33,129 nucleotides of DNA from an uncultured Rhodothermaceae bacterium (lineage in GTDB: Bacteria; Bacteroidota; Rhodothermia; Rhodothermales; CAZLRO01): positions 1-33,129 of the forward strand of contig CAZLRO010000005.1 of assembly GCA_964561865.1 (NCBI GenBank). Direction: 5' to 3'. The stretch's first letter is position 1; each line of letters opens with the position of its first letter. This document shows, one piece after another, positions 1,836-27,694 of this stretch. A program made the translations under genes and the position numbers. The notes beneath the pieces are model-generated. The model was not told where the DNA came from and did not search any database. It saw only the letters and a list, made by a program, of their open reading frames with translations.

Positions 1836-1856
1836 GCGGTTGGGGGCTTGGAAAGA

Positions 1857-2169
1857 TAGCTGTTAGCCGTTAACTGTTGGCGATTTGGTACGTGGGGCTT
1901 GGTCCTTGGGGACATAGCGGCAACATCCCCACCGGTGTCATCACGAGGAAGCCGCTAGGCTGACGATGTGATCTCGCTCTTGCCACCAGGCAGCAGCGTC
2001 GAAGTAATCTACCGTCGAGACGGCCCCGTTCCCCCCGGCATGAATTATAGTCAAGTTGACTATGTTTCCATGTCCAGTGTCGAGATTGCCATGTCTGACC
2101 GATCTCATGAGATCGGTCAAGCTCCTCGCAATGACACAGCGAGGGAGGGGAGTGCCCAATCCGCAATCC
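1857..2169 (-). repeat. Mosaic hairpin-rich intergenic repeat element, copy C (shuffled module order)
   Basis: Shares these modules with 27208-27587 and 17314-17797: TAGCTGTTAGCCGTTA, GTGTCATCACGAGGAAGCC, CTTGCCACCNGGCAGCAGCGTCG, GACCGATCTCATGAGATCGGTC, CCAATCCGCAATCC. Confidence 0.8.
2047..2063. repeat. AT-rich palindrome ATAGTCAA-G-TTGACTAT (family member embedded in repeat copy C)
   Basis: Perfect 8-bp arms. Same core as the sites at 8044, 11107 and 23545. Confidence 0.7.
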
Positions 2170-2170
2170 T

Positions 2171-3989: not shown

Positions 3990-4223
3990 TCAGCGATGCT
4001 TGGCTTCCAGGTAGGAATGGTAGTCGGCTTCATCGACCGGGCTACCAGCCCATACTCCTTTGAGCCTGCGTACCAGAGGGGTTAATTCTTGCGTAGGTTG
4101 GGCTACAAGAGTAGCCAGGTAGTACGAGACGATCTGGGAGACCGACAAGCCATGCGCTTTGGCGAAGCGCTCTGCTTCCTCCAGCAAGGTTTTATCAAGG
4201 TGGAGGGTCACTTCTGTTTCCAT
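3990..4223 (-). CDS. Antitoxin partner of the PIN toxin (VapB-like, 77 aa)
   Basis: Small ORF 6 nt upstream of vapC on the same strand. TLHLDKTLLEEAERFAKAHGLSVSQIV is typical of small DNA-binding antitoxins. Confidence 0.7.
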   Translation of the reverse strand: METEVTLHLDKTLLEEAERFAKAHGLSVSQIVSYYLATLVAQPTQELTPLVRRLKGVWAGSPVDEADYHSYLEAKHR

Positions 4224-4288
4224 GACGGACCTCTGGTTGCACGGTCGGTTTGCCTCTCACGCATCATGGGCGATTTGGATTCCATCCC

Positions 4289-8031: not shown

Positions 8032-8043
8032 GAATGGATAAAT

Positions 8044-8083
8044 TATAGTCAAAATGACTATAATTATAGTCATTTTGACTATA
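8044..8083. repeat. 40-bp perfect AT-rich palindrome made of two TATAGTCA-N3-TGACTATA units
   Basis: TATAGTCAAAATGACTATAATTATAGTCATTTTGACTATA is its own reverse complement. It lies 13 nt after the dipeptidase stop codon. Confidence 0.9.
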
Positions 8084-8285
8084 AATTGTCGTGGGTTGTA
8101 ATGGCCTGGGCAATGGGCGGCATCAAGCTCTGCTCTCATCGAACCGATTGAGCCGTATCGATCTGCACGATCATTTCGCCTGTATCTGATTCCCCGGCAG
8201 GGCTATATTTCCAGGTCGATTTGCATCTTTCCTGTTCCGAGCTTCAATTTGCGTCTTTGTGCCCTCTTATCCCCCACCACCAGCT

Positions 8286-9512
8286 ATGCCCTTCGTCATC
8301 TTCGTCGCGCCGGTGTTTTCGCCTGCGGCCACTGGCATCATCGAGGCCATTGCGCGCCTGCCGCAGGTCACCCTTGGCCTGATCAGCCAGGAGGCGGTGG
8401 AGTTGTTGCCGCTTCGCTTGCGGGGTGGAGTGGCTGCGCACTGGCGCATCGACAACGTGCTGGACACGCCTGCGTTGCTTGGTGCAGTGAACGGACTGGT
8501 GGAGAAGGTGGGGCAGCCGCTGCACCGGGTGTTCGGCGCGTTCGAGCAACTCCAGGTGCCCATCGCCGAAGTCCGCCGCACGCTCGGCATCGAGGGCATG
8601 ACGGTGGAGGCGGCGACGAACTTCCGGGACAAGGCGCGGATGAAAGAGTTGTTCCACGCCCACAGCATCCCGTGTGCCCGTCATCGGCTGGCCCACAGCG
8701 ATGCCGAGGCGTGGGACTTCGCCCGTGAGGTAGGCTACCCGCTCGTCCTCAAGCCGCACGAGGGGGCGGGGTCGCAGTCCACCTTCCGCGTGGACCGGGA
8801 CGACCAGTTGCGGCAGGCCCTCGGCCACAGCCGCCCCGGTCCACACCAGCCTGTACTCCTCGAGGAGTTCGTCACGGGCGACGAGCACTCACTCGAGACC
8901 GTCTCCATCGATGGCAAGGCCGTCTGGCACTCGCTCACACGGTACTATCCGACCCCGCTGGAGGTGCTGCGCAACCCGTGGATCCAGTGGACGGTGGTGC
9001 TGCCCCGCGAGGTGGACGACCCGCAGTACAACGACATCCGCAAGGCCGGGGCAAAAGCGCTGAAGGTGTTGGGGATGCAGACGGGCCTGAGCCACATGGA
9101 ATGGTTTCGCCGTAAGGACGGGAGCCTCGCCATCTCGGAGGTGGCTGCCCGCCCGCCGGGGGCACAGTTCACCACGCTCATCACGCGGGCGCACGACATG
9201 GACTTCCTCTATGCCTGGGCGCGCCTGATGGTCTATGGCGACTTCGACCCGCCCAAGCGCCGTTTCGCCGTCGGCGCGGCCTACCTGCGGGCGCAGGGCT
9301 ACGGCAGCCGCATCGTGGCCGTGCAGGGCCTCGACACCATCGAGCGCGAGGTGGGCTACCTCATCGTCGATGCCAAGCGCCCGCAACTGGGTGCAGCCCC
9401 GGCACCGAGCTACGAGGGAGAAGGCTACCTCATCGTCCGCCATGAGGACACCGGCGTCGTCCAGCAGGTGCTCAACCACATCGTCTCGACGGTGCGCGTG
9501 GAGCTGGGGTGA
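8286..9512 (+). CDS. ATP-grasp domain ligase (paralog 1)
   Basis: Motifs FRDKARMKELF, GYPLVLKPHEGAGSQ, EEFVTGDEHS and SEVAARPPGA. Clear paralogy with 16081-17298, including the shared GYLIVRH. The ATG at 8286 is preferred to the upstream GTG at 8259. Confidence 0.85.
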   Translation: MPFVIFVAPVFSPAATGIIEAIARLPQVTLGLISQEAVELLPLRLRGGVAAHWRIDNVLDTPALLGAVNGLVEKVGQPLHRVFGAFEQLQVPIAEVRRTLGIEGMTVEAATNFRDKARMKELFHAHSIPCARHRLAHSDAEAWDFAREVGYPLVLKPHEGAGSQSTFRVDRDDQLRQALGHSRPGPHQPVLLEEFVTGDEHSLETVSIDGKAVWHSLTRYYPTPLEVLRNPWIQWTVVLPREVDDPQYNDIRKAGAKALKVLGMQTGLSHMEWFRRKDGSLAISEVAARPPGAQFTTLITRAHDMDFLYAWARLMVYGDFDPPKRRFAVGAAYLRAQGYGSRIVAVQGLDTIEREVGYLIVDAKRPQLGAAPAPSYEGEGYLIVRHEDTGVVQQVLNHIVSTVRVELG

Positions 9513-11021: not shown

Positions 11022-11106
11022 GGTCTCAGCAGGGTTTGCGACTGGGTCAGGGCTGGTCCGACACCCCACGCACGCCGCGTCGCGTGCCGGGGGTAGCTGC
11101 TTGAAA

Positions 11107-11125
11107 TATAGTCAAACTGACGATA
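11107..11125. repeat. AT-rich palindrome unit TATAGTCA-AAC-TGACGATA
   Basis: Same family as 8044-8083, with one arm mismatch. It lies in the divergent region between the HAD gene and the spondin-like gene. Confidence 0.65.
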
Positions 11126-14615: not shown

Positions 14616-14619
14616 CGGG

Positions 14620-14676
14620 TGAAGAGGGCTGTTAGCTGGTAGGTACCTGGTGCTTGAAAAAATCCCAAATCCGCAA
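14620..14676 (-). repeat. 57-nt mini-copy (copy D) of the mosaic repeat element between pntAA and pntAB
   Basis: GAAGAGGGCTGTTAGCTGGTAGGTACCTGGTGCTTGAAAAAATCCCAAATCCGCAAT joins the terminal modules of the long copies. Confidence 0.75.
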
Positions 14677-14696
14677 TATCAACTCGGCAGTCCCCC

Positions 14697-16080: not shown

Positions 16081-17298
16081 ATGAACGTCCTGATGATTTC
16101 GCCGGGCTACCCGGATGAGATGCCGTATTTCTGCCGCGCCCTCTCCTGGGTGGGCGCCAACGTCTATGGCATCAGCGACCAGCCGCTGTGGTCGCAGCCG
16201 CAGCTTGTGCGGGATCACCTGGCGGGCTACCTCCAGTCGCCGACCCTGTGGGACGAGGACGCGGTCGTCCAGTATGTGTTGCGCTATGCGGCCCCACTGA
16301 AGATCGACCGGGTGGTGTGCCTGTGGGAGCCGGGGATGATCCTGGCCGCCCGGCTACGCGAAGCCCTCGGCACGCCGGGCATGACGGTGGCCGAGACCCT
16401 CCCCTTCCGCGACAAGGACGTGATGAAGAACGTGCTGGCCGAAGCAGGCATCCGCACACCTCACCATGCACGGGCCGCCGGGGAGAAGCAGATCGCCGCC
16501 GCCGCAAAAAAGATCGGCTATCCGGTCATTCTCAAACCCCTGGCCGGGGCCGGGTCTGCCGACACCCACCGGGTCAACAACGCCAGCGACCTCAAGACGG
16601 TCCTCCCCCAGATCGCCCACCTGCCGGAAGTGGATGTGGAAGAGTTCATCGATGGCGAGGAATATACCTTCGACACCATCTGCGTCAATGGCGAGATCAA
16701 GTATTACAGCATGACGTGGTACCGCCCGCGCCCGCTCGTTGCCCGGACGAACGAGTGGATCAGCCCGCAGATCCTCATGCTGCGCGACGTGGAGGCCGAT
16801 TACCTGGCCGAGGGCCGCGAGATGGGCCGGGCCGTGCTCCGGGCGCTGAAGTTCCGCACCGGCTTCACGCACATGGAATGGTACAAGAAAGCCAATGGGG
16901 AGGTGGTCTTTGGCGAGATCGCAGCCCGTCCACCCGGCGCCAACTCGGTCGATGTGATGAACTATGCCTCCAACATCGACCTGTATGTGGGCTGGGCCGA
17001 GGCGCGCGTCCACCTGCGCTTCACCCAGCCCGTCGAGCGGAAATACAATGCGGCCATCATCTACAAGCGGGCGCAGGGAGAAGGGCAAATCCGCGAGATT
17101 CACGGTGTGGAAGCCCTCCGGCAACGCTACGGCGATGCGGTGGTGGTGGTCAACCTGCTGCCCATCGGGGCACACCGCCGCAACTGGAAACAGACCCTCA
17201 TCTCCGATGGCTACCTCATCGTCCGCCACCCGGACCTCGACACCCTGCTCGAAATCGCCGATGCCGCTGGCACCGACGTAAACCTGTACGCCGGGTGA
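16081..17298 (+). CDS. ATP-grasp domain ligase (paralog 2)
   Basis: Motifs FRDKDVMKNVL, GYPVILKPLAGAGSA, EEFIDGEEYT, GEIAARPPGA and GYLIVRH. The ATG at 16081 starts MNVLMISPGYP. The longer track ORF from 15415 is antisense to pntAA. Confidence 0.9.
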   Translation: MNVLMISPGYPDEMPYFCRALSWVGANVYGISDQPLWSQPQLVRDHLAGYLQSPTLWDEDAVVQYVLRYAAPLKIDRVVCLWEPGMILAARLREALGTPGMTVAETLPFRDKDVMKNVLAEAGIRTPHHARAAGEKQIAAAAKKIGYPVILKPLAGAGSADTHRVNNASDLKTVLPQIAHLPEVDVEEFIDGEEYTFDTICVNGEIKYYSMTWYRPRPLVARTNEWISPQILMLRDVEADYLAEGREMGRAVLRALKFRTGFTHMEWYKKANGEVVFGEIAARPPGANSVDVMNYASNIDLYVGWAEARVHLRFTQPVERKYNAAIIYKRAQGEGQIREIHGVEALRQRYGDAVVVVNLLPIGAHRRNWKQTLISDGYLIVRHPDLDTLLEIADAAGTDVNLYAG

Positions 17299-17313
17299 AA
17301 CAAGACCCAAGGG

Positions 17314-17797
17314 GAATTGCGGATTTTGGATTGCGGATTTTTTCAAGCACCAAGTACCAGGCACCCGTAGGGGCGAAGGCCCTCTTCGCCCTCCAGGCAC
17401 CAGGCACCACACCCCCGGAAGTCCCCTCTCCCAGAGGGGTGGCACGCACGGCGCAGCCGGGCGGGACGGGGGGGGTGCACCTGTTGACCGCAACGTGGGT
17501 GCTGGTGCAGGCGCTGCGACACACCCCGTCTCCCCGATGCCCCCTGGCGCGTGCCCATCGGGGAGCCACCCCTCTCAAGAGGGGATTTTTGCGTGGGCGA
17601 CGCTGCTGCGATGTTGCTGCCCGGTGGCAAGGGCGAGATCAAGACCCCTCGTTCCTCGGGGCAGGCTCTAGCTGGTCGATCTCATGAGATCGCCAGACGG
17701 CTTCCTCGTGATGACACGTTTGGGAAGGTTGTTGCCCTCTTCACCAAGCACCAGGTACCAAGTACCCAACAGCTAACAGCCAACGGCTAACAGCTAC
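17314..17797 (+). repeat. Mosaic hairpin-rich intergenic repeat element, copy A (longest)
   Basis: Modules and hairpins:
- tandem ATTGCGGATTTT
- CAAGCACCARGTACC twice (17344-17358 and 17744-17758)
- hairpins at 17371-17391, 17423-17439, 17530-17565 and 17569-17584
- palindrome CGATCTCATGAGATCG at 17677-17692
- tandem AACAGCTAAC at the 3-prime end
About 270 nt are roughly 95% identical to the reverse complement of 27208-27455 (manual alignment). Confidence 0.9.
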
Positions 17798-17808
17798 CAC
17801 TCCCCTGA

Positions 17809-18333: not shown

Positions 18334-18408
18334 TCGCCGTGCGGACAGGACTGCGGCAGGGCCACGACCTATCCTGATGCACTAAAGCATCGTCTCGGTA
18401 AACGACCT

Positions 18409-18450
18409 CAAAACAGGATTGGTGTATCATCCAAAACAGGATTGATGTAT
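18409..18450 (+). repeat. Two 19-nt direct repeats, CAAAACAGGATTGRTGTAT, phased 23 bp apart
   Basis: 18409-18427 and 18432-18450 are identical at 18 of 19 positions. They lie in a 40%-GC non-coding stretch upstream of the AraC remnant. Confidence 0.6.
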
Positions 18451-18600
18451 TCTGCGTCGCAAGAGAGGATAAAGTGTTTTGGCTCTTGCTGAAAAAGCTA
18501 ACTTTTCCATAAGGGCTATGTGATCGATTATCTACTCCTGCTTCTTCTCATGATGCTATACGACACCCGCTCCGCAGCATTACGCCAGTTTCAGCAATAG

Positions 18601-18925
18601 CTTCACGCTCGGGAGAAGGAACTGCCTGCAGATGTTCAAAAGGTGTTCCGATGTCTGTACGATCATCTGTTCGGATTCGATATAAATGTGAACCAGGTTT
18701 TACAGACCCGTGCGATCCGTATGTCTCGCATTACATGCCTGTTATACACAGCAGTGCATCGCGGCGGCACGGAAGCTGCTGGAGCAGACGTCGGTTTCTG
18801 TAACACGGGTAGGGTTGGAGGTCGGCTTCAACAGCGTGAGCGCCTTTGACATGACGTTTGGGCAGTCTGTAGGGTGTACGCCTGCGGAGTACAGCGCGCA
18901 AGTGAAGGGGCAGTCCTCGGATTGA
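18601..18925 (+). pseudogene. Remnant of an AraC/XylS-family regulator (C-terminal HTH region only, frame-disrupted)
   Basis: The second HTH, AARKLLEQTSVSVTRVGLEVGFNSVSAFDMTFGQSVGCTPAEY, is intact in one frame. The first-HTH-like DINVNQVLQT...MSRI is in another frame and about 9 aa too short. No N-terminal sensor domain lies upstream. Confidence 0.6.
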
Positions 18926-19063
18926 GGAAAAACTTCAGGACAAAACTCAGGCACCTGCTTTCAGCAGGAGGTAATTTTGATGAAAATCAGCGTTAGGGCA
19001 TAGACCTCAAGCGGTCGATCCATAACGCTGGTGCTCACCTAAACCCAATCCTATGGAGGACTT

Positions 19064-20590
19064 ATGAGACGGTCACTTTCCTTCAAAACTCATACTGCCA
19101 TGCTCAACTCAATCTCTCCATCGCACCCCTTGCCTGCCTGGTTGCTTGCAGGCATTCTTACGGTTGCTCTGGGCGCCTGCGACACCCCTTCGATCGTCGA
19201 GTCGTCAACTCCCGATCCTGGAAAGGCAACCATCATTCAGACGGAACGCATCAGCCCTGTGGATGGCCGTCCCATCGTGCGGATGACGGAACAGGTGTTC
19301 CGGGATAGCTATATGGAGGAGGTGCGGGCGTACCTGACCCAGGCTGGTATCCCGTTGTTGCAACACCTGAAAACGCAAGTTGCCGCCAAGGCTGAAGAGG
19401 GGCATCAACTGTATCTCGGTGAGGTGCTGCGTTCGATGCCAACAGCGGCCAAGGATGCCAATCGCCCCTCTACGCATCTCGAACTGATGAGGGAAAACGA
19501 GCAGGTTACCGAGGCTTTTCTCACACTCGAAGTGTTGGGCAGCTTCGGTCCCCAACCGGTCGGGGTGGACTGCGACGAGTTGCTTAGTGCGAATACCTGC
19601 ATCACGGCATACATCGCCGATCCGGATGATGAAACGGATATTGGTGATACGGGCACGACAACGGTCTATGCTCCTTCGGTCGAAGATGCGTCGGTGCTCG
19701 TCTCGATTCTCATAGGAGAGCCCGGCATTGTGCAAGTCACTCCCGTCACTTCGACCGTAATCGGCATCGGGGTAGATAACCAGGAGTCCTCCATCGATGG
19801 CTCGGCTGGCCCCTTGGGGGTGACCGACGACACAGAGGACCGTCTCCTGGCACTGTCCCAGCTGCGCACGCAGGATAACCGTGAATCAGGTGATGCCGAA
19901 CTGGTGATGTCTATCCAGCAGACGGATGACTATAACCAGAGCTACACCAATCGCTGGAACTACTTCTTCGACAAACGCAGCACAGCAAACATTAGCTGGA
20001 CTCACCTGGCTTCGTTTATCTCTGGCATTCTGGATGGGGGTGAGCTGGACAGCCTGATGACAATCCTGGCAAAGGCGGTTCAGTTTGGAAGCACCCGGCG
20101 GGTGCAAGGGGCCGATGGGGCCGTTTACGAAGTGCCTGATGTCAATGCCGATGGCATCTCCTACAGCTTCACCGCTATGTCAAGTTGGGGATTGCTGGGT
20201 AAGGCCGCAGGTGCGAAAGCAGACTATTTCCCCATTGTGCTCCTCGGTGAGCAACCCTACCGCCTCGTGCTTCAGGAGAAGGATAACACCTGGCCCTGGA
20301 GTGACTACAAGTACTACAGTCGTCGCAAGAGCACAGCGGTGACTGAAAGTGTGAACACCTACGACTTCAGCACAGGTCAGTACAAGACCGAGGCCACCAA
20401 GTTCACGAGCAAGTCCCATTCCTGGGGGTCGAGCGATGATGTGGTGCTGCAATCCGGCGCACGCAAGGCCACTAAGCCCAATGTATTTGCTCGGATGGGC
20501 AATACCTATGATGGTACCATTACTGCGGCCACTGGTAATCACCAGTATGTATTCAGGACGGTGAAAAACCGGGTTGTAGTCAGTGGCTGA
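19064..20590 (+). CDS. Lipoprotein of unknown function (508 aa)
   Basis: GGAGGA Shine-Dalgarno 4 nt upstream of the ATG. Lipobox LTVALGAC. No recognisable domain. About 52% GC. Confidence 0.7.
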   Translation: MRRSLSFKTHTAMLNSISPSHPLPAWLLAGILTVALGACDTPSIVESSTPDPGKATIIQTERISPVDGRPIVRMTEQVFRDSYMEEVRAYLTQAGIPLLQHLKTQVAAKAEEGHQLYLGEVLRSMPTAAKDANRPSTHLELMRENEQVTEAFLTLEVLGSFGPQPVGVDCDELLSANTCITAYIADPDDETDIGDTGTTTVYAPSVEDASVLVSILIGEPGIVQVTPVTSTVIGIGVDNQESSIDGSAGPLGVTDDTEDRLLALSQLRTQDNRESGDAELVMSIQQTDDYNQSYTNRWNYFFDKRSTANISWTHLASFISGILDGGELDSLMTILAKAVQFGSTRRVQGADGAVYEVPDVNADGISYSFTAMSSWGLLGKAAGAKADYFPIVLLGEQPYRLVLQEKDNTWPWSDYKYYSRRKSTAVTESVNTYDFSTGQYKTEATKFTSKSHSWGSSDDVVLQSGARKATKPNVFARMGNTYDGTITAATGNHQYVFRTVKNRVVVSG

Positions 20591-20596
20591 AGTTTT

Positions 20597-20632
20597 GCAG
20601 GGCAGGGGGCCGTAGGAAGCCTCCTGCCCTGC
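20597..20632 (+). terminator. Terminator-like hairpin after the 508-aa lipoprotein gene
   Basis: GCAGGGCAGG-(16 nt)-CCTGCCCTGC forms a perfect 10-bp stem. No T-run follows. Confidence 0.4.
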
Positions 20633-20659
20633 GCCACCTTGTCAAGCGAGTACCCCAAC

Positions 20660-21878
20660 ATGAAACGCACACCCCGACTTTCTTATCAGGCAGGCGCTTT
20701 CCCCCTGTTCCTGGCCCTGTTGACCGCAGGCTGTGGCCTGTTCGAAGAACGAAACCCCGACGATCCCAATCGCCGCTACGACAAGGCAATATTTCCGGAA
20801 CGTACCCCGCTCATTGCAGCAACATTCGAAGCCACACCAGACACGCAGGCCTTCTATGCGCCTGCCGAAGTCTTCGTAGGGCTGATCGAAGAGCCGCTCG
20901 ATAAGGATTATGTGGTATACCTGGACCCAGCCGTCGAGGTCGATGAGGCCATCTATAGCCCTACCCTGCACGCACAGGTGATGGAGTTTGCCTATCAGGG
21001 ACATTTCCGCCCAATACCGGATACAGGCGCGGAGGTGGTGGTCACTGGCCCAACAGGTACCGCCTGGGAACAGCGGGTGGTGCTGCCCCATCATCGGGCG
21101 GGCGTTTATGTAGACACGGCAGAACGTCTGGTCATGCTGGCAGGTGGACACTATCAGTTGGACGTCCACATGCAAGACGGGCGCCACTATCAATCGGAGA
21201 TGCGGCTGCCTTCACAGCCAGACTGGTCGATCCCGGATACGCTTGAGGTTGAAGTCAAGCGGCTGTACCGGGAACGCAGTGGCAACTGTTATGAAGAGTC
21301 TGATCTCTGGGAAAACGCTCCTCGGCTACCAGATCCTCAAACTGTCAAGGATGGATCACTGGCAGCAATGCAGGTGAACTATTCCAATGACTGGGAGGTG
21401 TTTTTTTACTCCACCCGGAGGGTTTCGCTTCGAGGATCGTGGAAACTATCGGCGCGAAGGTGGAACCTATTCCATATTTACTCCTGCTGCTCATAGCACA
21501 GGTATGTTTGGTATTGGGTGGTTAGAGAAAGCTTCCCCAAAACAAGGTTTTGTATCTGAGAAGAAGGCTTGGTTTCGTTTTTCGCAGATGGAGTGGAATC
21601 TGTCTCGATTCTATTTTAATGAGTTTATTGAGTTTCTAAACTTGAATGGCGACCCTTCCAATGATAGGTATTGGAATACGGTTCCGGATGCTATATTTCA
21701 GCGAAACAGTGACTATTTCTTTGGGGTATCCAATATCAAAAAAGTAGGTGAAAACGGGGAATTGCTGCCGAAATCGGACGCAGTGGGCGTTTTTGGTGGT
21801 TATTCGTCGGTGTACCGCTCGTCCGTCATCATCCCGCGACGGACCTGGAATTTGACCCTGTTGGAAACCTGTCCATGA
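20660..21878 (+). pseudogene. DUF4249-like lipoprotein split by a +1 frameshift in a T7 run (21401-21407)
   Basis: Lipobox LALLTAGC. AEVVVTGPTGTAWEQRVVLPHHRAGVYVDTAERLVMLAGGHYQLDVHMQDGRHYQSEMRLP matches the DUF4249 central pattern. The C-terminal SNIKKVG...GVFGGYSS lies in the +1 frame (track ORF 21387-21878). Deleting one T joins ...NDWEVFF to TPPGGFRFED. Confidence 0.55.
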
Positions 21879-21939
21879 TGACAATATTCCTCGCAATCAT
21901 CCTCATTATTTTATCTCAAAATCCTACCGGATAACGACG

Positions 21940-22656
21940 ATGAAAAAGGAAACGTACAGCAGTAGCCTGCTTATTTTGATGGTGCAGGTCCTCGTGGTTT
22001 TGCCCGTGCTGGCCCAGGTAGAGCACTCCGATCCGGGGCGTTCACACTTGCTGCTCTCGCCGACGGCGCGCTCGCTGGGGAGCGGGCAGTGGAAGGCCGG
22101 CTTACGGGAGCTGGTGTTCCCGTTTGTGGGCGTAGGCGTGGGGGACCGTGTCTCGCTGGCAGGCGGGCGTTCGGTGATCCCGGATCAGGAGAACCAGTTT
22201 ACCTACCTTATACCACAAGTGAACGTGCTGCGTCGTTCCCAGGCGCACGTGGCAGTCGGCACGCTGGCGATGCGGCAAGACGGTGGGGATTGGGGCGGGG
22301 TAGCCTATAGCGTGGGCACCTTCGGGGCCGACCACCGCGCCTTGACGGTTGGCTTGGGAGTTCCCTATAACGAAAATGGTTTCAAGACGGCACCCGTGCT
22401 CATGGCCGGTGGCGACCTGGCCCTAACACCCCATCTCCGGTTGCTGGCCGAATCGCTGTGGTTGCCCGACGCTGAAGGCTCGGCGCTGGTGACGGGCCTG
22501 GGCCTGCGGGTGCACCATCGCTGGGTCGCAGTCGATGGTGGTGTGTTCACCCTGTCAGGGAAAACCTTCGACGATGCCGACACGGACCTGGAGGTGGACT
22601 GGCCGCTCGTGCCCTGGCTCAGTGTGACGTTTCAGCAGGGGCGGCGGGGACGTTAG
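21940..22656 (+). CDS. Secreted hypothetical protein, possibly a small outer-membrane beta-barrel
   Basis: Signal peptide LVVLPVLAQ. Alternating hydrophobic/Gly-rich beta-strand-like pattern. No recognised domain. Confidence 0.55.
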   Translation: MKKETYSSSLLILMVQVLVVLPVLAQVEHSDPGRSHLLLSPTARSLGSGQWKAGLRELVFPFVGVGVGDRVSLAGGRSVIPDQENQFTYLIPQVNVLRRSQAHVAVGTLAMRQDGGDWGGVAYSVGTFGADHRALTVGLGVPYNENGFKTAPVLMAGGDLALTPHLRLLAESLWLPDAEGSALVTGLGLRVHHRWVAVDGGVFTLSGKTFDDADTDLEVDWPLVPWLSVTFQQGRRGR

Positions 22657-23461: not shown

Positions 23462-23544
23462 CGTCGTCCAGGGCTGGGTGCCGCAACAAACCGCCGGGAA
23501 TTCGGGCCTGTTCCAGGAGTACAGATTTTCGACGCTGGGAAAAT

Positions 23545-23580
23545 TATAGTCAAATTGACGATATCGTCAATTTGACTATA
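23545..23580. repeat. 36-bp perfect AT-rich palindrome made of two overlapping TATAGTCA-N3-TGACGATA units
   Basis: TATAGTCAAATTGACGATATCGTCAATTTGACTATA is its own reverse complement. It abuts the stop codon of the acyltransferase gene at 23581. Confidence 0.9.
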
Positions 23581-24534
23581 TCAGAGATAAGCTGGCCCCC
23601 CTCCGTCGAGGTCTATGTCCAGCAGGCGCTGGAAGGCCGGAGGGAGGAGGGAAGAGAAGGCATCGCCGTTGTAGAACTTGATCCCCCGGCGGCGGAGGTA
23701 GTCGCGGAAATCCTGTTCCACCGGCCCCAGCGGGCCGATGACCTGCATCTGCCCGAGGTCGAACACGGTGTGGTTGCACCGGATGTGCTGTTCGGCCTCG
23801 TGGAAGTCCAGCTCCACTGCCAGGTGCTTGAACTGCGCCAGTTCCGCATAGTCGCGCAGGATGGCCCGGACGGTTTCGGCGTTGGTGGCGGGATCGACCA
23901 CCGGGTAAGCGTGCTCCCGCAAGATGCGGATGGGGGTGCCCGCGGCGAAGGCCCCGTCGGGGATGTCCCGGTTGACGAGCGAGCCGAGGCCAATGACGAC
24001 GTTGCTGCCGATGGTGCGGTTGGGCAACACCGTCGAGCGGGCCGGGAGCCACACCTTGTCGCCAATCCGGACCGGGCCGAAGTCCGCCGGGAACCCTTCG
24101 AGCACCGGCAGGAACGCGCCGTGCGTCCAGATGTTGACCTCATTGCCGATACCCACCCAGGCGCCGATGGTGATGGCGTCGCTGAGGTTGAGCAGGACGC
24201 GGTCGCACACCATCGTGTATGGCCCGGTGTGGAGCGTCGAACGCGGCCCGTACTGTCCACCCTGCCCCACCATAATATCGCTTTCCCAGTAGCCGTAGGT
24301 GCCGAGGTGGATGGCACGCCCGGTGAGCTGGTTGCGGTCGCCCAGGACCGTTCGCGCCCCGATGTGCAGGTGGTCGGCCACCAGAAACCGGTTGTGCGCT
24401 CCAATGCGGACATGGTCTTCGAGGACGCAATGGTTGGCCCGGATGATGGTGTCGGGGCCTATCGAGACGCCGACGCCCACCTCGACCTGCTCGCCCACGA
24501 GGAAGCTGTTGCCTTCCAGCCGGATAACGTGCAT
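23581..24534 (-). CDS. Hexapeptide-repeat (left-handed beta-helix) acyltransferase
   Basis: Repeated [LIV]-G-x4 hexapeptide pattern across the N-terminal 200 aa, for example VGVSIGPDTIIRANHCVLEDHVRIGAHN and IGDKVWLPARSTVLPNRTIGSNVVIGLGSLV. Confidence 0.8.
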   Translation of the reverse strand: MHVIRLEGNSFLVGEQVEVGVGVSIGPDTIIRANHCVLEDHVRIGAHNRFLVADHLHIGARTVLGDRNQLTGRAIHLGTYGYWESDIMVGQGGQYGPRSTLHTGPYTMVCDRVLLNLSDAITIGAWVGIGNEVNIWTHGAFLPVLEGFPADFGPVRIGDKVWLPARSTVLPNRTIGSNVVIGLGSLVNRDIPDGAFAAGTPIRILREHAYPVVDPATNAETVRAILRDYAELAQFKHLAVELDFHEAEQHIRCNHTVFDLGQMQVIGPLGPVEQDFRDYLRRRGIKFYNGDAFSSLLPPAFQRLLDIDLDGGGPAYL

Positions 24535-26235: not shown

Positions 26236-27081
26236 CTAATTCTGAAGCGTATGGTCGCCTTCCGCAGCGGGAATGGTAGCCCACCGGGCGGCCCCGTGGA
26301 TCTGCCCGGTGGCCGGGTCCTGGACGATTGCCACGGCCCCACCATTCGCGGGGAGGCCGTCGCCGGGTAGTACCAGCGACGCCGTATGCGTAGCGCCGGG
26401 GGTGGCGGCCAGGGTGCCTGCGGGTTCCAGGTGCCGTACCACGTAGTCGTTGCGGAGCTGCCGACGGGCGTTCTCGCCCCGCGCCACGTCGGTGACCAGG
26501 CCATTCTCGAAGACGACGACCACCACGTCGAGGGTGCGGGCCGGGAGGGATCGTAGCACCTCTACGTGGACGGTCAACGCCTGGGTTCCTGCCGACCCCG
26601 GGGTGGTGGTCAGGGCCACCCGGGTGCCCAGAGGTAGGGTTCGCAAGGCTTCAAGTTGCTGGCGAATCCGGGTGGCGTGGGAGCCAACGAGGGCCGTCTG
26701 TCCTTGGAGCACCAGTTGGGGGGTGTAAACCCCACCGTCCTTCAACTGGCCTGCGTACCGCGCCTGCCGGGCCGACCAGGCTTCGCGGGAAAACGGGTCG
26801 GCCCAGCCGAGGTGGTTCCAGTAATCCACGTGAAAAGACAGCGGGATCACGGCCGCGCCATAGCGACGCCCCAGCTCGGAGAGCAGCCGGTCTGCCGGGG
26901 GACAACTGGAGCAGCCCTGTGAGGTGAACAGTTCGAGCACGACCGGTGCGGCTGTCGTGTCGGGCAACGGGGAGGCCACAGGCTGGGACGGCGGTGGCGC
27001 GGGCACCACCTGGAAACGGTGCCACCCCCAGGCAGCACCCAGCACGACCAGCACGGTCAGGAGGAGGATTCGCATCGGCAT
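26236..27081 (-). CDS. DUF1223-domain (thioredoxin-like) protein
   Basis: VLELFTSQGCSSCPPADRLL and SFHVDYWNHLGWADPF are DUF1223 hallmarks. An N-terminal TM/signal segment is present. The start ATG overlaps the upstream small-ORF stop (TGATG). Confidence 0.85.
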   Translation of the reverse strand: MPMRILLLTVLVVLGAAWGWHRFQVVPAPPPSQPVASPLPDTTAAPVVLELFTSQGCSSCPPADRLLSELGRRYGAAVIPLSFHVDYWNHLGWADPFSREAWSARQARYAGQLKDGGVYTPQLVLQGQTALVGSHATRIRQQLEALRTLPLGTRVALTTTPGSAGTQALTVHVEVLRSLPARTLDVVVVVFENGLVTDVARGENARRQLRNDYVVRHLEPAGTLAATPGATHTASLVLPGDGLPANGGAVAIVQDPATGQIHGAARWATIPAAEGDHTLQN

Positions 27082-27197
27082 CAGGGCACCGGGCACCGCC
27101 CCAGCAGCATCTGCCAGAGAAACGAAGCTGCCAGGGCCAGGCCCATGAGAAGGTAGAAAAACCGGGAAATTGGGGATGTTTGGTGGTTCAGGGTCAT
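27081..27197 (-). CDS. Small hydrophobic ORF (38 aa), translationally coupled to the DUF1223 gene; not in the ORF track
   Basis: MTLNHQTSPISRFFYLLMGLALAASFLWQMLLGRCPVP has GC-rich third codon positions. Its stop overlaps the DUF1223 ATG. Its start sits 10 nt from the end of repeat copy B, as the pentapeptide gene does at copy A. Confidence 0.35.
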   Translation of the reverse strand: MTLNHQTSPISRFFYLLMGLALAASFLWQMLLGRCPVP

Positions 27198-27207
27198 GAC
27201 GGGGAGA

Positions 27208-27587
27208 TAGCTGTTAGCCGTTAGCTGTTTGGGACTTGGGACTTGGCGAAGAGGGCAGCAACCTTCCCAAACGTGTCATCACGAGGAAGCCATTGGTCGA
27301 TCTCATGAGATCGACCAGCTAGAGCCTGCCCCGAGGAACGAGGGGTCTTGATCTCACCCTTGCCACCGGGCAGCAGCGTCGCCCACACGAAAATCCCCTC
27401 TTGAGAGGGGTGGCTCCCCGATGGGCACGCGCCAGCAGGCATCGGGGAGACGGGGTGTGGTGCACGGCTGACCGCAACGCAGGTGCCAGTGCAACCGCTG
27501 CGACACACCCCTCTCGGAGAGGGGACTTGGGGAGTTAGGCAGCGACATTCCCACCGGTGGCATCTCCAATCCGAAGTCCGCAATCCC
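27208..27587 (-). repeat. Mosaic hairpin-rich intergenic repeat element, copy B (inverted relative to copy A)
   Basis: The reverse complement aligns with 17314-17797. It contains the 22-bp perfect palindrome GGTCGATCTCATGAGATCGACC, the CCCCTC/GAGGGG hairpins and the CTCCCCGATG/CATCGGGGAG stem. Confidence 0.9.
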
Positions 27588-27694
27588 AGCTCTCCCTCCC
27601 ATCGTCGGCATCGGCCTTCGCGTCCCTATTCCGTATGTTCCATCATTTTCGACCGGGATTGCATCACGGATATCGCCGTTCGGGTCACAAATCC

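Follow-up and report, generated by a model that had tools for sequence, protein, structure and literature searches.

Hairpin units and heptamer arrays in intergenic spacers of an uncultured bacterial lineage: a repeat family that probably evolves as a DNA-level mosaic

Several kinds of non-coding repeat are known from the spacers between bacterial genes. The short tandemly repeated repetitive (STRR) sequences of cyanobacteria are heptamers, reportedly described by Mazel et al. in 1990. The Neisseria intergenic mosaic elements (NIMEs) consist of RS units flanked by dRS3 repeats and have been proposed as substrates for recombination and sequence exchange; the mycobacterial interspersed repetitive units (MIRUs) of Mycobacterium are tandem units of 40-100 bp, with small open reading frames (ORFs) overlapping the flanking stop and start codons and a reported orientation bias; and integrons carry an attC repeat after each promoterless cassette ORF, with R''/R' core sites (RYYYAAC ... 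GTTRRRY) and an adjacent integrase. Mosaics of extragenic palindromes are documented as the repetitive extragenic palindromes (REPs) and bacterial interspersed mosaic elements (BIMEs) of enterobacteria and the REP doublets forming hairpins (REPINs) of Pseudomonas (PMC3333891 and PMC3337134). Miniature inverted-repeat transposable elements (MITEs), including nested or composite ones such as the Correia element of Neisseria, are the subject of a review (PMC3184786), and arrays of the heptamer TAACTGA have been reported in Beggiatoaceae, Cyanobacteria and Bacteroidetes; these arrays precede start codons in forward orientation, vary from strain to strain by 7-nt indels and, in Bacteroidetes, occur in 'assemblages' (PMC4679880). 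Here we analyse a family of hairpin-rich intergenic repeats with four copies in a 33,129-nucleotide stretch that takes in the whole of contig CAZLRO010000005.1, from an uncultured Rhodothermaceae bacterium (the whole stretch is called the window hereafter). We conclude that these are probably lineage-restricted, DNA-level mosaic repeats, BIME/NIME-like in kind, which turn over by slippage, insertion and gene conversion.

A preliminary description of the window had proposed four related intergenic loci. A repeat search within the window confirmed that they share modules well above chance level, and every listed feature was found where it had been placed. We refer to the copies as W1 to W4, and to the two kinds of left half that they carry, described below, as type A and type B.

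1836 to 2170, minus strand: W1, type A, flanked by the ends of two convergent genes; the inner inverted repeats span 2123-2146 and 1926-1949, and there are palindromes at 2096-2119 and 2042-2068.
14616 to 14696, minus strand: W2, a heptamer-only mini-copy between pntAA and pntAB.
17299 to 17808, plus strand: W3, the complete spacer from the stop of an ATP-grasp gene (17298) to the start of a pentapeptide-repeat gene (17809); a type-B mosaic.
27198 to 27694, minus strand: W4, the spacer from the stop of an S9 peptidase gene (27695) to the start of a 38-aa ORF (27197); a type-B element at 27208-27587, with what is left of a right-end module in front of it.

The flanking stops (2171, 14697, 17298 and 27695) and starts (14615, 17809 and 27197) had also been placed correctly, as checked with a gene map based on GC content at third codon positions (GC3) and with gene calls on overlapping metagenome contigs. 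Between W3 and W4, positions 17608-17780 pair with the reverse complement of 27210-27382 (173 nt, 90%) and positions 17515-17609 with that of 27370-27464 (95 nt, 94%), the two blocks being offset by an 11-nt indel. An identity of about 95% with one 11-nt indel had been claimed for this pair: the indel is real and the figure holds if it is ignored, while the core identity with the indel counted is 90.6%. The repeat search also links W3 and W4 to 1850-1954 and 14627-14677, and CGATCTCATGAGATCG occurs 3 times in the window against 0.02 expected. Some points had to be amended. A segment of about 60 nt in W3 (17460-17527) has the opposite orientation in W4, so that the two copies are not collinear left of 17525, and the copy at 1857-2169 has the distinct, type-A kind of left half with internal inverted repeats. 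The sequences ATTGCGGATTTT and AACAGCTAAC, presented as tandem units, are indeed tandem, yet the true unit is a heptamer. Tandem Repeats Finder (TRF) gives ATTGCGG, CAAGCAC, CCAGGCA, ACCAAGT and AACAGCT as units, in period-7 arrays at 17316-17339 (ATTGCGG), 17344-17365, 17393-17409, 17743-17766 and 17768-17796 (AACAGCT), with equivalents at 27208-27246.

To these copies we added material from metagenome contigs of the same lineage (given L numbers), reached via mis-called ORFs and look-ups of window proteins; for instance, the 120-aa pseudo-ORF of W4 used as a query found element-derived ORFs. This yielded about ten further copies at new loci (L018a, L018b, L019, L006a, L045c, L045d, L053, L054/55 and L059) and orthologous versions of all of W1 to W4. 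Flank identity to the window is about 97% for L035 and L056 and about 99% for L036 and L045, with L038, L040 and L057 as further related contigs.

Comparison between strains gives the decisive evidence for a DNA-level mosaic. We observed 7-nt steps in the arrays, gain and loss of palindromes and of a mini-core, inversion of hairpin-bounded blocks, and exchange of cores between loci. The strains compared have identical PntB and a flank identity of 96.8-99.7%. The pntAA-pntAB spacer measures 81 nt in the window, 93 nt in L035, where it has one extra heptamer, and 126 nt in L036, L038 and L040, where a 38-nt mini-core (TCATGTCATTGCGAGGAGCGTAGCGACGTGGCAATCTC) has been added between two TTGCGGA heptamers. 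The spacer between the ATP-grasp and pentapeptide genes, i.e. the W3 site, measures 510 nt in the window, 542 nt in L035 and 189 nt in L036; in L038 it is cut by the contig end, so that its length is at least 217 nt. The L035 version has extra heptamers at both ends and is without the 11-nt duplication. In L036 and L038 the type-B core of about 390 nt is swapped for the same 38-nt mini-core, with both heptamer flanks kept, and these two strains differ from each other by two 14-nt heptamer pairs. Since L035, which is more distant, shares the long form with the window, it is the L036 lineage that gained the mini-core, at two loci and within less than 1% divergence. Palindromes come and go as well. 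At the W1 site, L056 and L057 have GTAGC in place of the left 25-nt palindrome (a replacement rather than a clean insertion), a gained 45-nt right module with a palindrome, and 3-4 more heptamers, and at the solo palindrome site 8035-8090 a 21-nt indel leaves L035 with one unit versus two inverted ones in the window. The elements are not conserved: whole modules differ between strains whose PntB is identical.

Module order and orientation are not fixed. Besides the 60-nt flip in W4, L054 and L059 carry the block of about 190 nt between the two CCCCTC hairpins (hairpin K and 17569-17584) in the opposite orientation, and in L053 a type-A left half lies inverted beside a type-B element. In L018b and L059, TATAGTCAA palindromes take the place of the interior of the 10-bp stem. 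W3 and W4 share 98.6% core identity within L035, versus 89.7% (about 95% ignoring the indel) between the W3 of L035 and that of the window, where flanks are 96.8-97.6% identical, and site patterns over W3 and W4 follow the paralogous grouping in 3 cases and the orthologous one in 1. Exchange of whole cores between loci thus leaves copies within a genome closer to each other than to their orthologues.

We propose that the heptamer arrays grow and shrink by replication slippage and that arrays common to different loci would serve as homology arms for gene conversion between them; that the arrays are the source of homology is suggested by cores being swapped while the arrays of each locus persist. 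Palindromes, often nested inside others, may spread through insertion, duplication or hairpin-templated copying. Base composition would allow copies to persist in short operon spacers, as either strand is G+T-rich after the stop and C+A-rich and G-poor before the start. Over its first 50 nt, the spacer has a G+T fraction of 0.40-0.68, which is never below 0.56 where a GGATTKB array comes first (seven copies). Over the last 50 nt the fraction is 0.26-0.40 for full copies, the exception being the truncated L045d (0.66). Given this strand-symmetric composition, an element on either strand begins G+T-rich and ends C+A-rich. The organism itself makes little use of Shine-Dalgarno (SD) motifs: an SD-like 4-mer precedes 10 of 50 genes only, and C makes up 37% and G 23% of the 20 nt preceding start codons. 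The G-poor, C+A-rich 3' end of the element, with its CTCCCC-type tail, would imitate this native, SD-independent C-rich leader in either orientation, which would explain the tight fit to stop and start codons without a fixed RNA function. Effects at the RNA level, i.e. protection of mRNA 3' ends, partial termination or heptamer-dependent translation, would be secondary; a secondary role of this kind is possible.

The anatomy of the family was derived from a multiple alignment. The right half, common to the copies, consists in order of CTGCTGCCYGGYGGCAAGRGYGAGATCA, an optional module of 21-45 nt with the GATCTCATGAGATC palindrome, GGCYTCCTCGTGATGACAC, GGGAAGGTTGCTGCCCTCTTC, (CCAAGYA)n(AACAGCT)n and a C-rich tail. 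The type-A left half (W1, L006a, L018a, L019 and L045c) reads (GGATTKB)n, GTGTCATTGCGAGGAGC, a palindrome, GGCAATCTCGAC and the TATAGTCAA palindrome, and its GTGTCATTGCGAGGAG pairs as an inverted repeat with the CTCCTCGTGATGACAC of the right half; the two repeats are 17-24 nt long, 75-88% complementary and 173-347 nt apart. The core closes into a single long hairpin (z -5.1), and from its sequence type A holds a MITE-like core bounded by the 17-24-nt inverted repeats GTGTCATYRCGAGGAG. The type-B left half (W3, W4, L018b, L053 and L054) is made of heptamers, hairpin J, heptamers, hairpin K, a block of about 190 nt with a 10-bp stem at its end, and a CCCCTC/GAGGGG hairpin; these copies have the right-hand inverted repeat only. 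Heptamer arrays flank every element and lie between internal units: one end has GGATTKB, and CCAAGYA/AACAGCT occupies the other end as well as the places between hairpin units. Every period-7 array in about 63 kb (the window, L018 and the new part of L045) falls within an element. Most units keep one relative orientation and are joined by the recurring heptamer linkers; inverted doublets exist. In W3 the parts are laid out as follows.

17316 to 17365, plus strand: 5' heptamer arrays, (ATTGCGG/ATTTTGG)n then (CAAGCAC/CAAGTAC)n, of period 7 in TRF; G+T-rich at the very start; strains differ by 7- or 14-nt steps.
17370 to 17392, plus strand: hairpin J, GGGCGAAG / CTTCGCCC, with heptamers on both sides (-18 kcal/mol, z -2.4); 1-2 occurrences in other copies, doubled in L006 and L053.
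17423 to 17439, plus strand: hairpin K, CCCCTCT CCC AGAGGGG, one edge of the invertible block.
17460 to 17527, plus strand: inverted segment bounded by GGGGTGTG / CACACCCC; its flipped counterpart in W4 is 27444-27511, a direct plus-strand match between otherwise reverse-complementary copies.
17530 to 17590, plus strand: 10-bp stem CTCCCCGATG / CATCGGGGAG, the CCCCTC/GAGGGG hairpin and ATTTTT, a weak terminator-like site.
17604 to 17614, plus strand: 11-nt duplication-type indel, which W3 and L018b have and W4 and both L035 copies lack.
17673 to 17696, plus strand: member of the GATCTCATGAGATC palindrome family, with 3 window copies against 0.02 expected; presence varies at orthologous sites.
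17699 to 17717, plus strand: module G, GGCTTCCTCGTGATGACAC, the right-hand inverted repeat of the type-A core.
17743 to 17808, plus strand: 3' heptamer arrays, (CCAAGYA)n(AACAGCT)n, and the C-rich tail CCACTCCCCTGA up to the ATG; 74% C+A, resembling the C-rich, SD-poor context before starts in this organism.

The preliminary description had favoured a different explanation, namely a transcribed RNA element, intercistronic or in the 3' untranslated region, whose hairpins stabilise the upstream mRNA or attenuate read-through and whose orientation is selected. We consider this unlikely, even if part of it is sound: copies inside operons are transcribed, as co-transcription is inevitable in spacers such as pntAA-pntAB or that of an ABC ATPase and its permease, and the hairpins are stable (-11 to -49 kcal/mol across the elements). 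Polarity was said to be always the same, which is true of W1 to W4 only. Seven copies whose two neighbours are known lie between co-oriented genes, and five of them are sense (W2, W3, W4, L018b between the ABC ATPase and permease genes, and L045c between M20 peptidase and glycosyltransferase genes), in line with the RNA explanation, while two are antisense, a difference without statistical significance (two-sided binomial p about 0.45). One of these, L018a (L018 7914-8440), lies between two plus-strand genes with its AACAGCT end overlapping the upstream stop codon; in the other, L045d (L045 19053-19299), the opposite-strand GGATTGCAGATTTC array is about 7-8 nt from the M20 gene start. As for the remaining copies, W1, L019, L053 and L059 lie opposite the end of a convergent gene, L006a adjoins a divergent start on a possibly chimeric contig, and L054 is sense, 55 nt upstream of nfeD. 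Orientation relative to genes is therefore mixed over the recovered copies, although a bias may remain at 5:2, and polarity is a tendency rather than a defining property. Together with the inverted internal blocks, the antisense copies speak against a transcribed element with a selected orientation, as does the dispensability of whole modules between near-identical strains.

Folding tests point in the same direction. W3 folds equally well on the sense (z -3.10) and antisense strands (z -3.26), as expected of DNA palindromes, and in an RNAalifold analysis of nine right halves the covariation term is 0.01 and the only robust helix is the palindrome. A conserved structured non-coding RNA is thus not supported: both strands fold alike, covariation is negligible, blocks are inverted, and Rfam holds no matching family. 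The palindrome arms do show symmetric variants (GACC...GGTC, GGTC...GACC and GGC...GCC), double changes of the kind that a selected RNA hairpin would show, next to asymmetric, recombinant arms (GGC...GACC in both L035 copies). A hairpin with a U-run is also kept in type-B copies, the CCCCTC/GAGGGG hairpin being followed by ATTTTT in W3 (5 T) and by ATTTTC (4 T) in W4, L035 and L018b. The hairpin and T-run noted before are hence real, but with a run of 4-5 nt and a terminator scan not above shuffles (1 site against 0.4-0.6 expected) they make a weak terminator candidate. On a viral contig of the same sample, moreover, the GATCTCATGAGATC hairpin is found after stop codons, which again would fit a role in RNA.

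Several observations weigh against turnover as a purely DNA-level mosaic. The symmetric double changes in the palindrome arms and the 5:2 sense excess in operon spacers leave room for selection on a transcribed hairpin. No outer terminal inverted repeats were found, the first 45 nt matching the reverse complement of the last 45 nt no better than shuffles do (p 0.2-1.0). No clear target-site duplication was found either: in the L036 pnt spacer a TTGCGGA stands on either side of the mini-core, and in the ATP-grasp spacer the mini-core lies between TTGCGGA and TTGTGGA, yet these are units of the surrounding heptamer array, which explains them equally well. The gene tables of the fetched contigs list no transposase or RAYT-type gene (REP-associated tyrosine transposase, Y1_Tnp). 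Lastly, the sample amounts to about 12 independent loci in some 80 kb of the lineage, and the L006 and L053 contigs may be chimeric across repeats. Weighed against the strain comparison, we still hold the DNA-level mosaic to be the probable explanation.

The position of the arrays raises another question, namely whether they, and not the hairpins, are the functional part. They could be SD-independent landing sites for ribosomes or RNA-binding proteins, with copy number tuning translation and the hairpin cores as passengers. C+A-rich arrays end 8-20 nt before an ATG at 6 loci (9-20 nt in W2, W3, W4, L018b and L045c, and about 8 nt on the opposite strand in L045d), in an organism without SD motifs and with C-rich leaders, array copy number varies between strains, and the TAACTGA repeats offer a published parallel (PMC4679880). 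Arrays also adjoin the stop codons of convergent genes at 3 loci (W1, L019 and L018a), however, and sit between hairpin units; most genes are without arrays, and no protein that might bind them was identified. Such a function for the arrays seems to us improbable. The same can be said of a bolder version, in which the arrays would be working parts of an intergenic 'cassette-exchange' system: they would act as two-way landing pads and as homology arms moving hairpin cores, thereby rewiring mRNA stability or termination in many operons of strains that are otherwise identical, and heptamer number would control translation in a manner resembling phase variation. We give this little credence.

Palindromes are not restricted to the mosaics. 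Two small autonomous ones, TGACCGATCTCATGAGATCGGTCA and TATAGTCAAATTGACTATA, are found among the units, and two palindrome families of 19-24 nt occur both within elements and solo, also in L018, L019, L027, L045 and L059. The palindrome TATAGTCAAnTTGACTATA, which had not been listed before, is a perfect palindrome (9-1-9), rich in AT where the genome has 64% GC, and occurs 6 times in the window against 0 expected: one lies within W1 and five are solo in other spacers, some of them promoter-type. Solo sites in the window include the following, for which no strand is assigned.

8035 to 8090: solo pair of TATAGTCAAAATGACTATA palindromes in opposite orientations; the unit is also nested inside elements.
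11098 to 11125: solo palindrome of the TATAGTCAA type, from the repeat search.
23536 to 23582: solo palindrome pair TATAGTCAA/TATCGTCAA, from the repeat search and TRF.

The AT-rich perfect palindrome TATAGTCAA(N)TTGACTATA stands solo in several spacers, including L018 14873-14897, at times as inverted doublets (window 8035-8090, L019 522-565); it could be a protein-binding site or an independent REP-like mobile unit. The viral contig L027 (IMG/VR, sample 3300043178, 63% GC), from the same metagenome sample, carries the host-element palindrome GACCGATCTCATGAGATCGG at 2777-2799 and 4218-4241. These GATCTCATGAGATC-family copies are solo and directly follow two gene stops, one of them preceded by a long T-run, which suggests that a phage infecting this host has acquired the hairpin or makes use of it.

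The excess of TATAGTCAAnTTGACTATA and its solo occurrence in promoter-type spacers, as well as inverted-repeat-bounded blocks found in both orientations, would also be compatible with palindromes that are bound by proteins at the DNA level (as operators, nucleoid sites or recombinase sites) and with inverted blocks as site-specific invertible switches. We find this very unlikely. Block orientation at each locus is uniform across the sampled strains, without a sign of active switching, no recombinase lies nearby, and the blocks contain no sigma-70-type promoter. An invertible promoter switch in particular was rejected, there being no promoter-like sites and orientation being fixed per locus across strains.

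A coding role for the elements has practically no chance of being right. Sense ORFs of 98-120 aa do span W1 and W4, and gene callers have annotated such ORFs, but with a GC content of 64% chance alone is expected to produce long ORFs, and neither Pfam nor NCBIfam gave a match. The 11-nt indel, not being a multiple of 3, already speaks against coding, and the 7-, 11-, 21- and 38-nt indels together break every frame, which effectively refutes it. Public protein sets do hold spurious gene calls from the family, 'hypothetical proteins' of 34-261 aa (P0001-P0003, P0145, P0147, P0149 and P0150) that are translated repeats. The family is rare, with 6 genuine pseudo-ORFs among 1.84 billion protein representatives (phmmer).

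Searches at the nucleotide level agree with a narrow distribution. The 19-mer GGCTTCCTCGTGATGACAC, common to three copies, gave 2 matches in GTDB representatives and 9 in JGI metagenome contigs, all of them chance matches with no further similarity, indicating that the lineage is absent from both collections. Rfam gave no match at the gathering threshold and only chance matches under permissive settings (GRIK4 3'UTR, ssnA, plant and animal miRNAs; best E-value 0.07-0.3), plasmid and phage collections gave no match to the element, and a literature search with motif strings returned nothing relevant. These results are in keeping with the preliminary description, which had not recognised the modules as any described family. 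In the nearest other lineage (L020, PntB 82% identical) the pntAA-pntAB spacer is 8 nt long and 12.5 kb contain zero modules. From these searches, it seems that the sequence family has not been described before and is limited to a single uncultured lineage of 64% GC. The closest named relatives of its PntB are found in metagenome-assembled genomes of Verrucomicrobiota (about 80%), and the element-bearing contigs encode Por_Secre_tail domains, as in type IX secretion system (T9SS) sorting, and SusC-like receptors, i.e. traits like those of the Fibrobacterota-Chlorobiota-Bacteroidota (FCB) group.

Some features of the neighbourhood are worth recording. Just downstream of the pentapeptide gene is a low-GC island (about 18386-22600; 44-56% vs about 65%) with four hypothetical genes; neither these nor the hypothetical genes flanking the elements belong to a family in Pfam or NCBIfam. 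The island is absent in L035, where the pentapeptide gene directly adjoins a gene of 224 aa. At the island junction, L005 and L006 have an IS5-type insertion sequence (IS; DDE_Tnp_1 and DUF4096, ends GAGGGTGTTTGAAAAGG) after ...TGATGCACTAA, and to judge from these sequences the junction looks like an insertion hot spot. This IS was considered as a MITE parent and rejected, its ends being unrelated to any module. The 38-aa hydrophobic ORF downstream of W4 (27081-27197, minus strand; MTLNHQTSPISRFFYLLMGLALAASFLWQMLLGRCPVP) has a stop that overlaps the ATG of a DUF1223 gene (TGATG). It is open in L035, where all three differences are non-synonymous, and it may be a small membrane protein, a leader peptide or a mis-set DUF1223 start. 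At about 3.6-4.2 kb, a PIN-domain toxin gene beside DUF6364 is called as 74 aa in the window versus 142 aa in L036, and at about 10.3-11.1 kb a HAD hydrolase is split in the window (63 + 140 aa, vs 230 aa; compared with L036 and L045); both look like strain-specific frameshifts or pseudogenes. The ATP-grasp gene upstream of W3 (16081-17298) has a paralogue at 8286-9512 (405 and 408 aa, respectively), with which it shares short stretches of nucleotide identity (87% between 9420-9449 and 17206-17235, for instance), and is called as 479 aa by NCBI vs 405 aa by JGI. A tRNA-Val(GAC) at 1116-1190 on the minus strand is the sole Rfam/ARAGORN match in the window.

The strain series could serve as a model for the building and homogenisation of BIME- or NIME-type mosaics and, if the arrays prove to affect SD-independent initiation, it would give an experimental handle on the function of TAACTGA/STRR tandem heptamers. 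On the practical side, such repeats break metagenome assemblies, yield spurious ORF calls and serve as good strain-typing markers.

How, then, do these elements compare with the systems we started from? The label 'REP/BIME-like', given to them as dispersed, hairpin-rich, modular intergenic repeats, names the right kind. Like REPs, BIMEs and REPINs, they are short extragenic palindromes in mosaic arrays with defined linkers, including inverted doublets (8035-8090), although most units here keep one relative orientation; they lie after genes and between operon genes, where they are co-transcribed, and evolve as a within-genome sequence population. They differ in having heptamer-microsatellite linkers and more heterogeneous units (19 to about 390 nt), no GTAG-type 5' tetranucleotide, no RAYT/Y1 gene on the fetched contigs and no sequence similarity. 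The statement that they do not fit a MITE was too strong, given the 17-24-nt inverted repeats, 173-347 nt apart, of type-A copies. With MITEs they share a non-coding nature, a size below 600 bp, an intergenic location, multiple copies, presence/absence polymorphism and, in type A, inverted repeats that close a long hairpin; unlike MITEs, they have internal inverted repeats, no clear target-site duplication and no cognate transposase, and their turnover resembles module exchange rather than clean insertion and excision.

NIMEs are similar in being intergenic arrays of variable units split by a short conserved repeat, but where they have a 20-bp inverted repeat as separator, the units here are separated by tandem heptamers; the phylum is another one and there is no link to surface-protein genes. 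MIRUs are likewise intercistronic in operons, whereas frame-breaking indels exclude small ORFs of their kind here. As for attC cassettes, the genes flanking the elements belong to housekeeping operons (pntAAB, ABC transporter), whose synteny is shared by a repeat-free relative, and the gene tables show no integrase. With TAACTGA arrays the elements have in common intergenic tandem 7-mers, mostly forward and a few nt from SD-less starts, 7-nt strain indels, membership (in some Bacteroidetes) of larger, near-identical intergenic 'assemblages', and relatives with short, repeat-free spacers (PMC4679880). The units are different, however (GGATTGC, CCAAGYA and AACAGCT/TAACAGC, of which the last shares TAAC only), and the arrays described here flank and separate hairpin units and a MITE-like core. 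On these sequence comparisons no named family fits, as the sequence and at least one defining feature fail each time. What is new is the sequence family; its kind, mosaic intergenic repeats, is already known, and current understanding is not contradicted.

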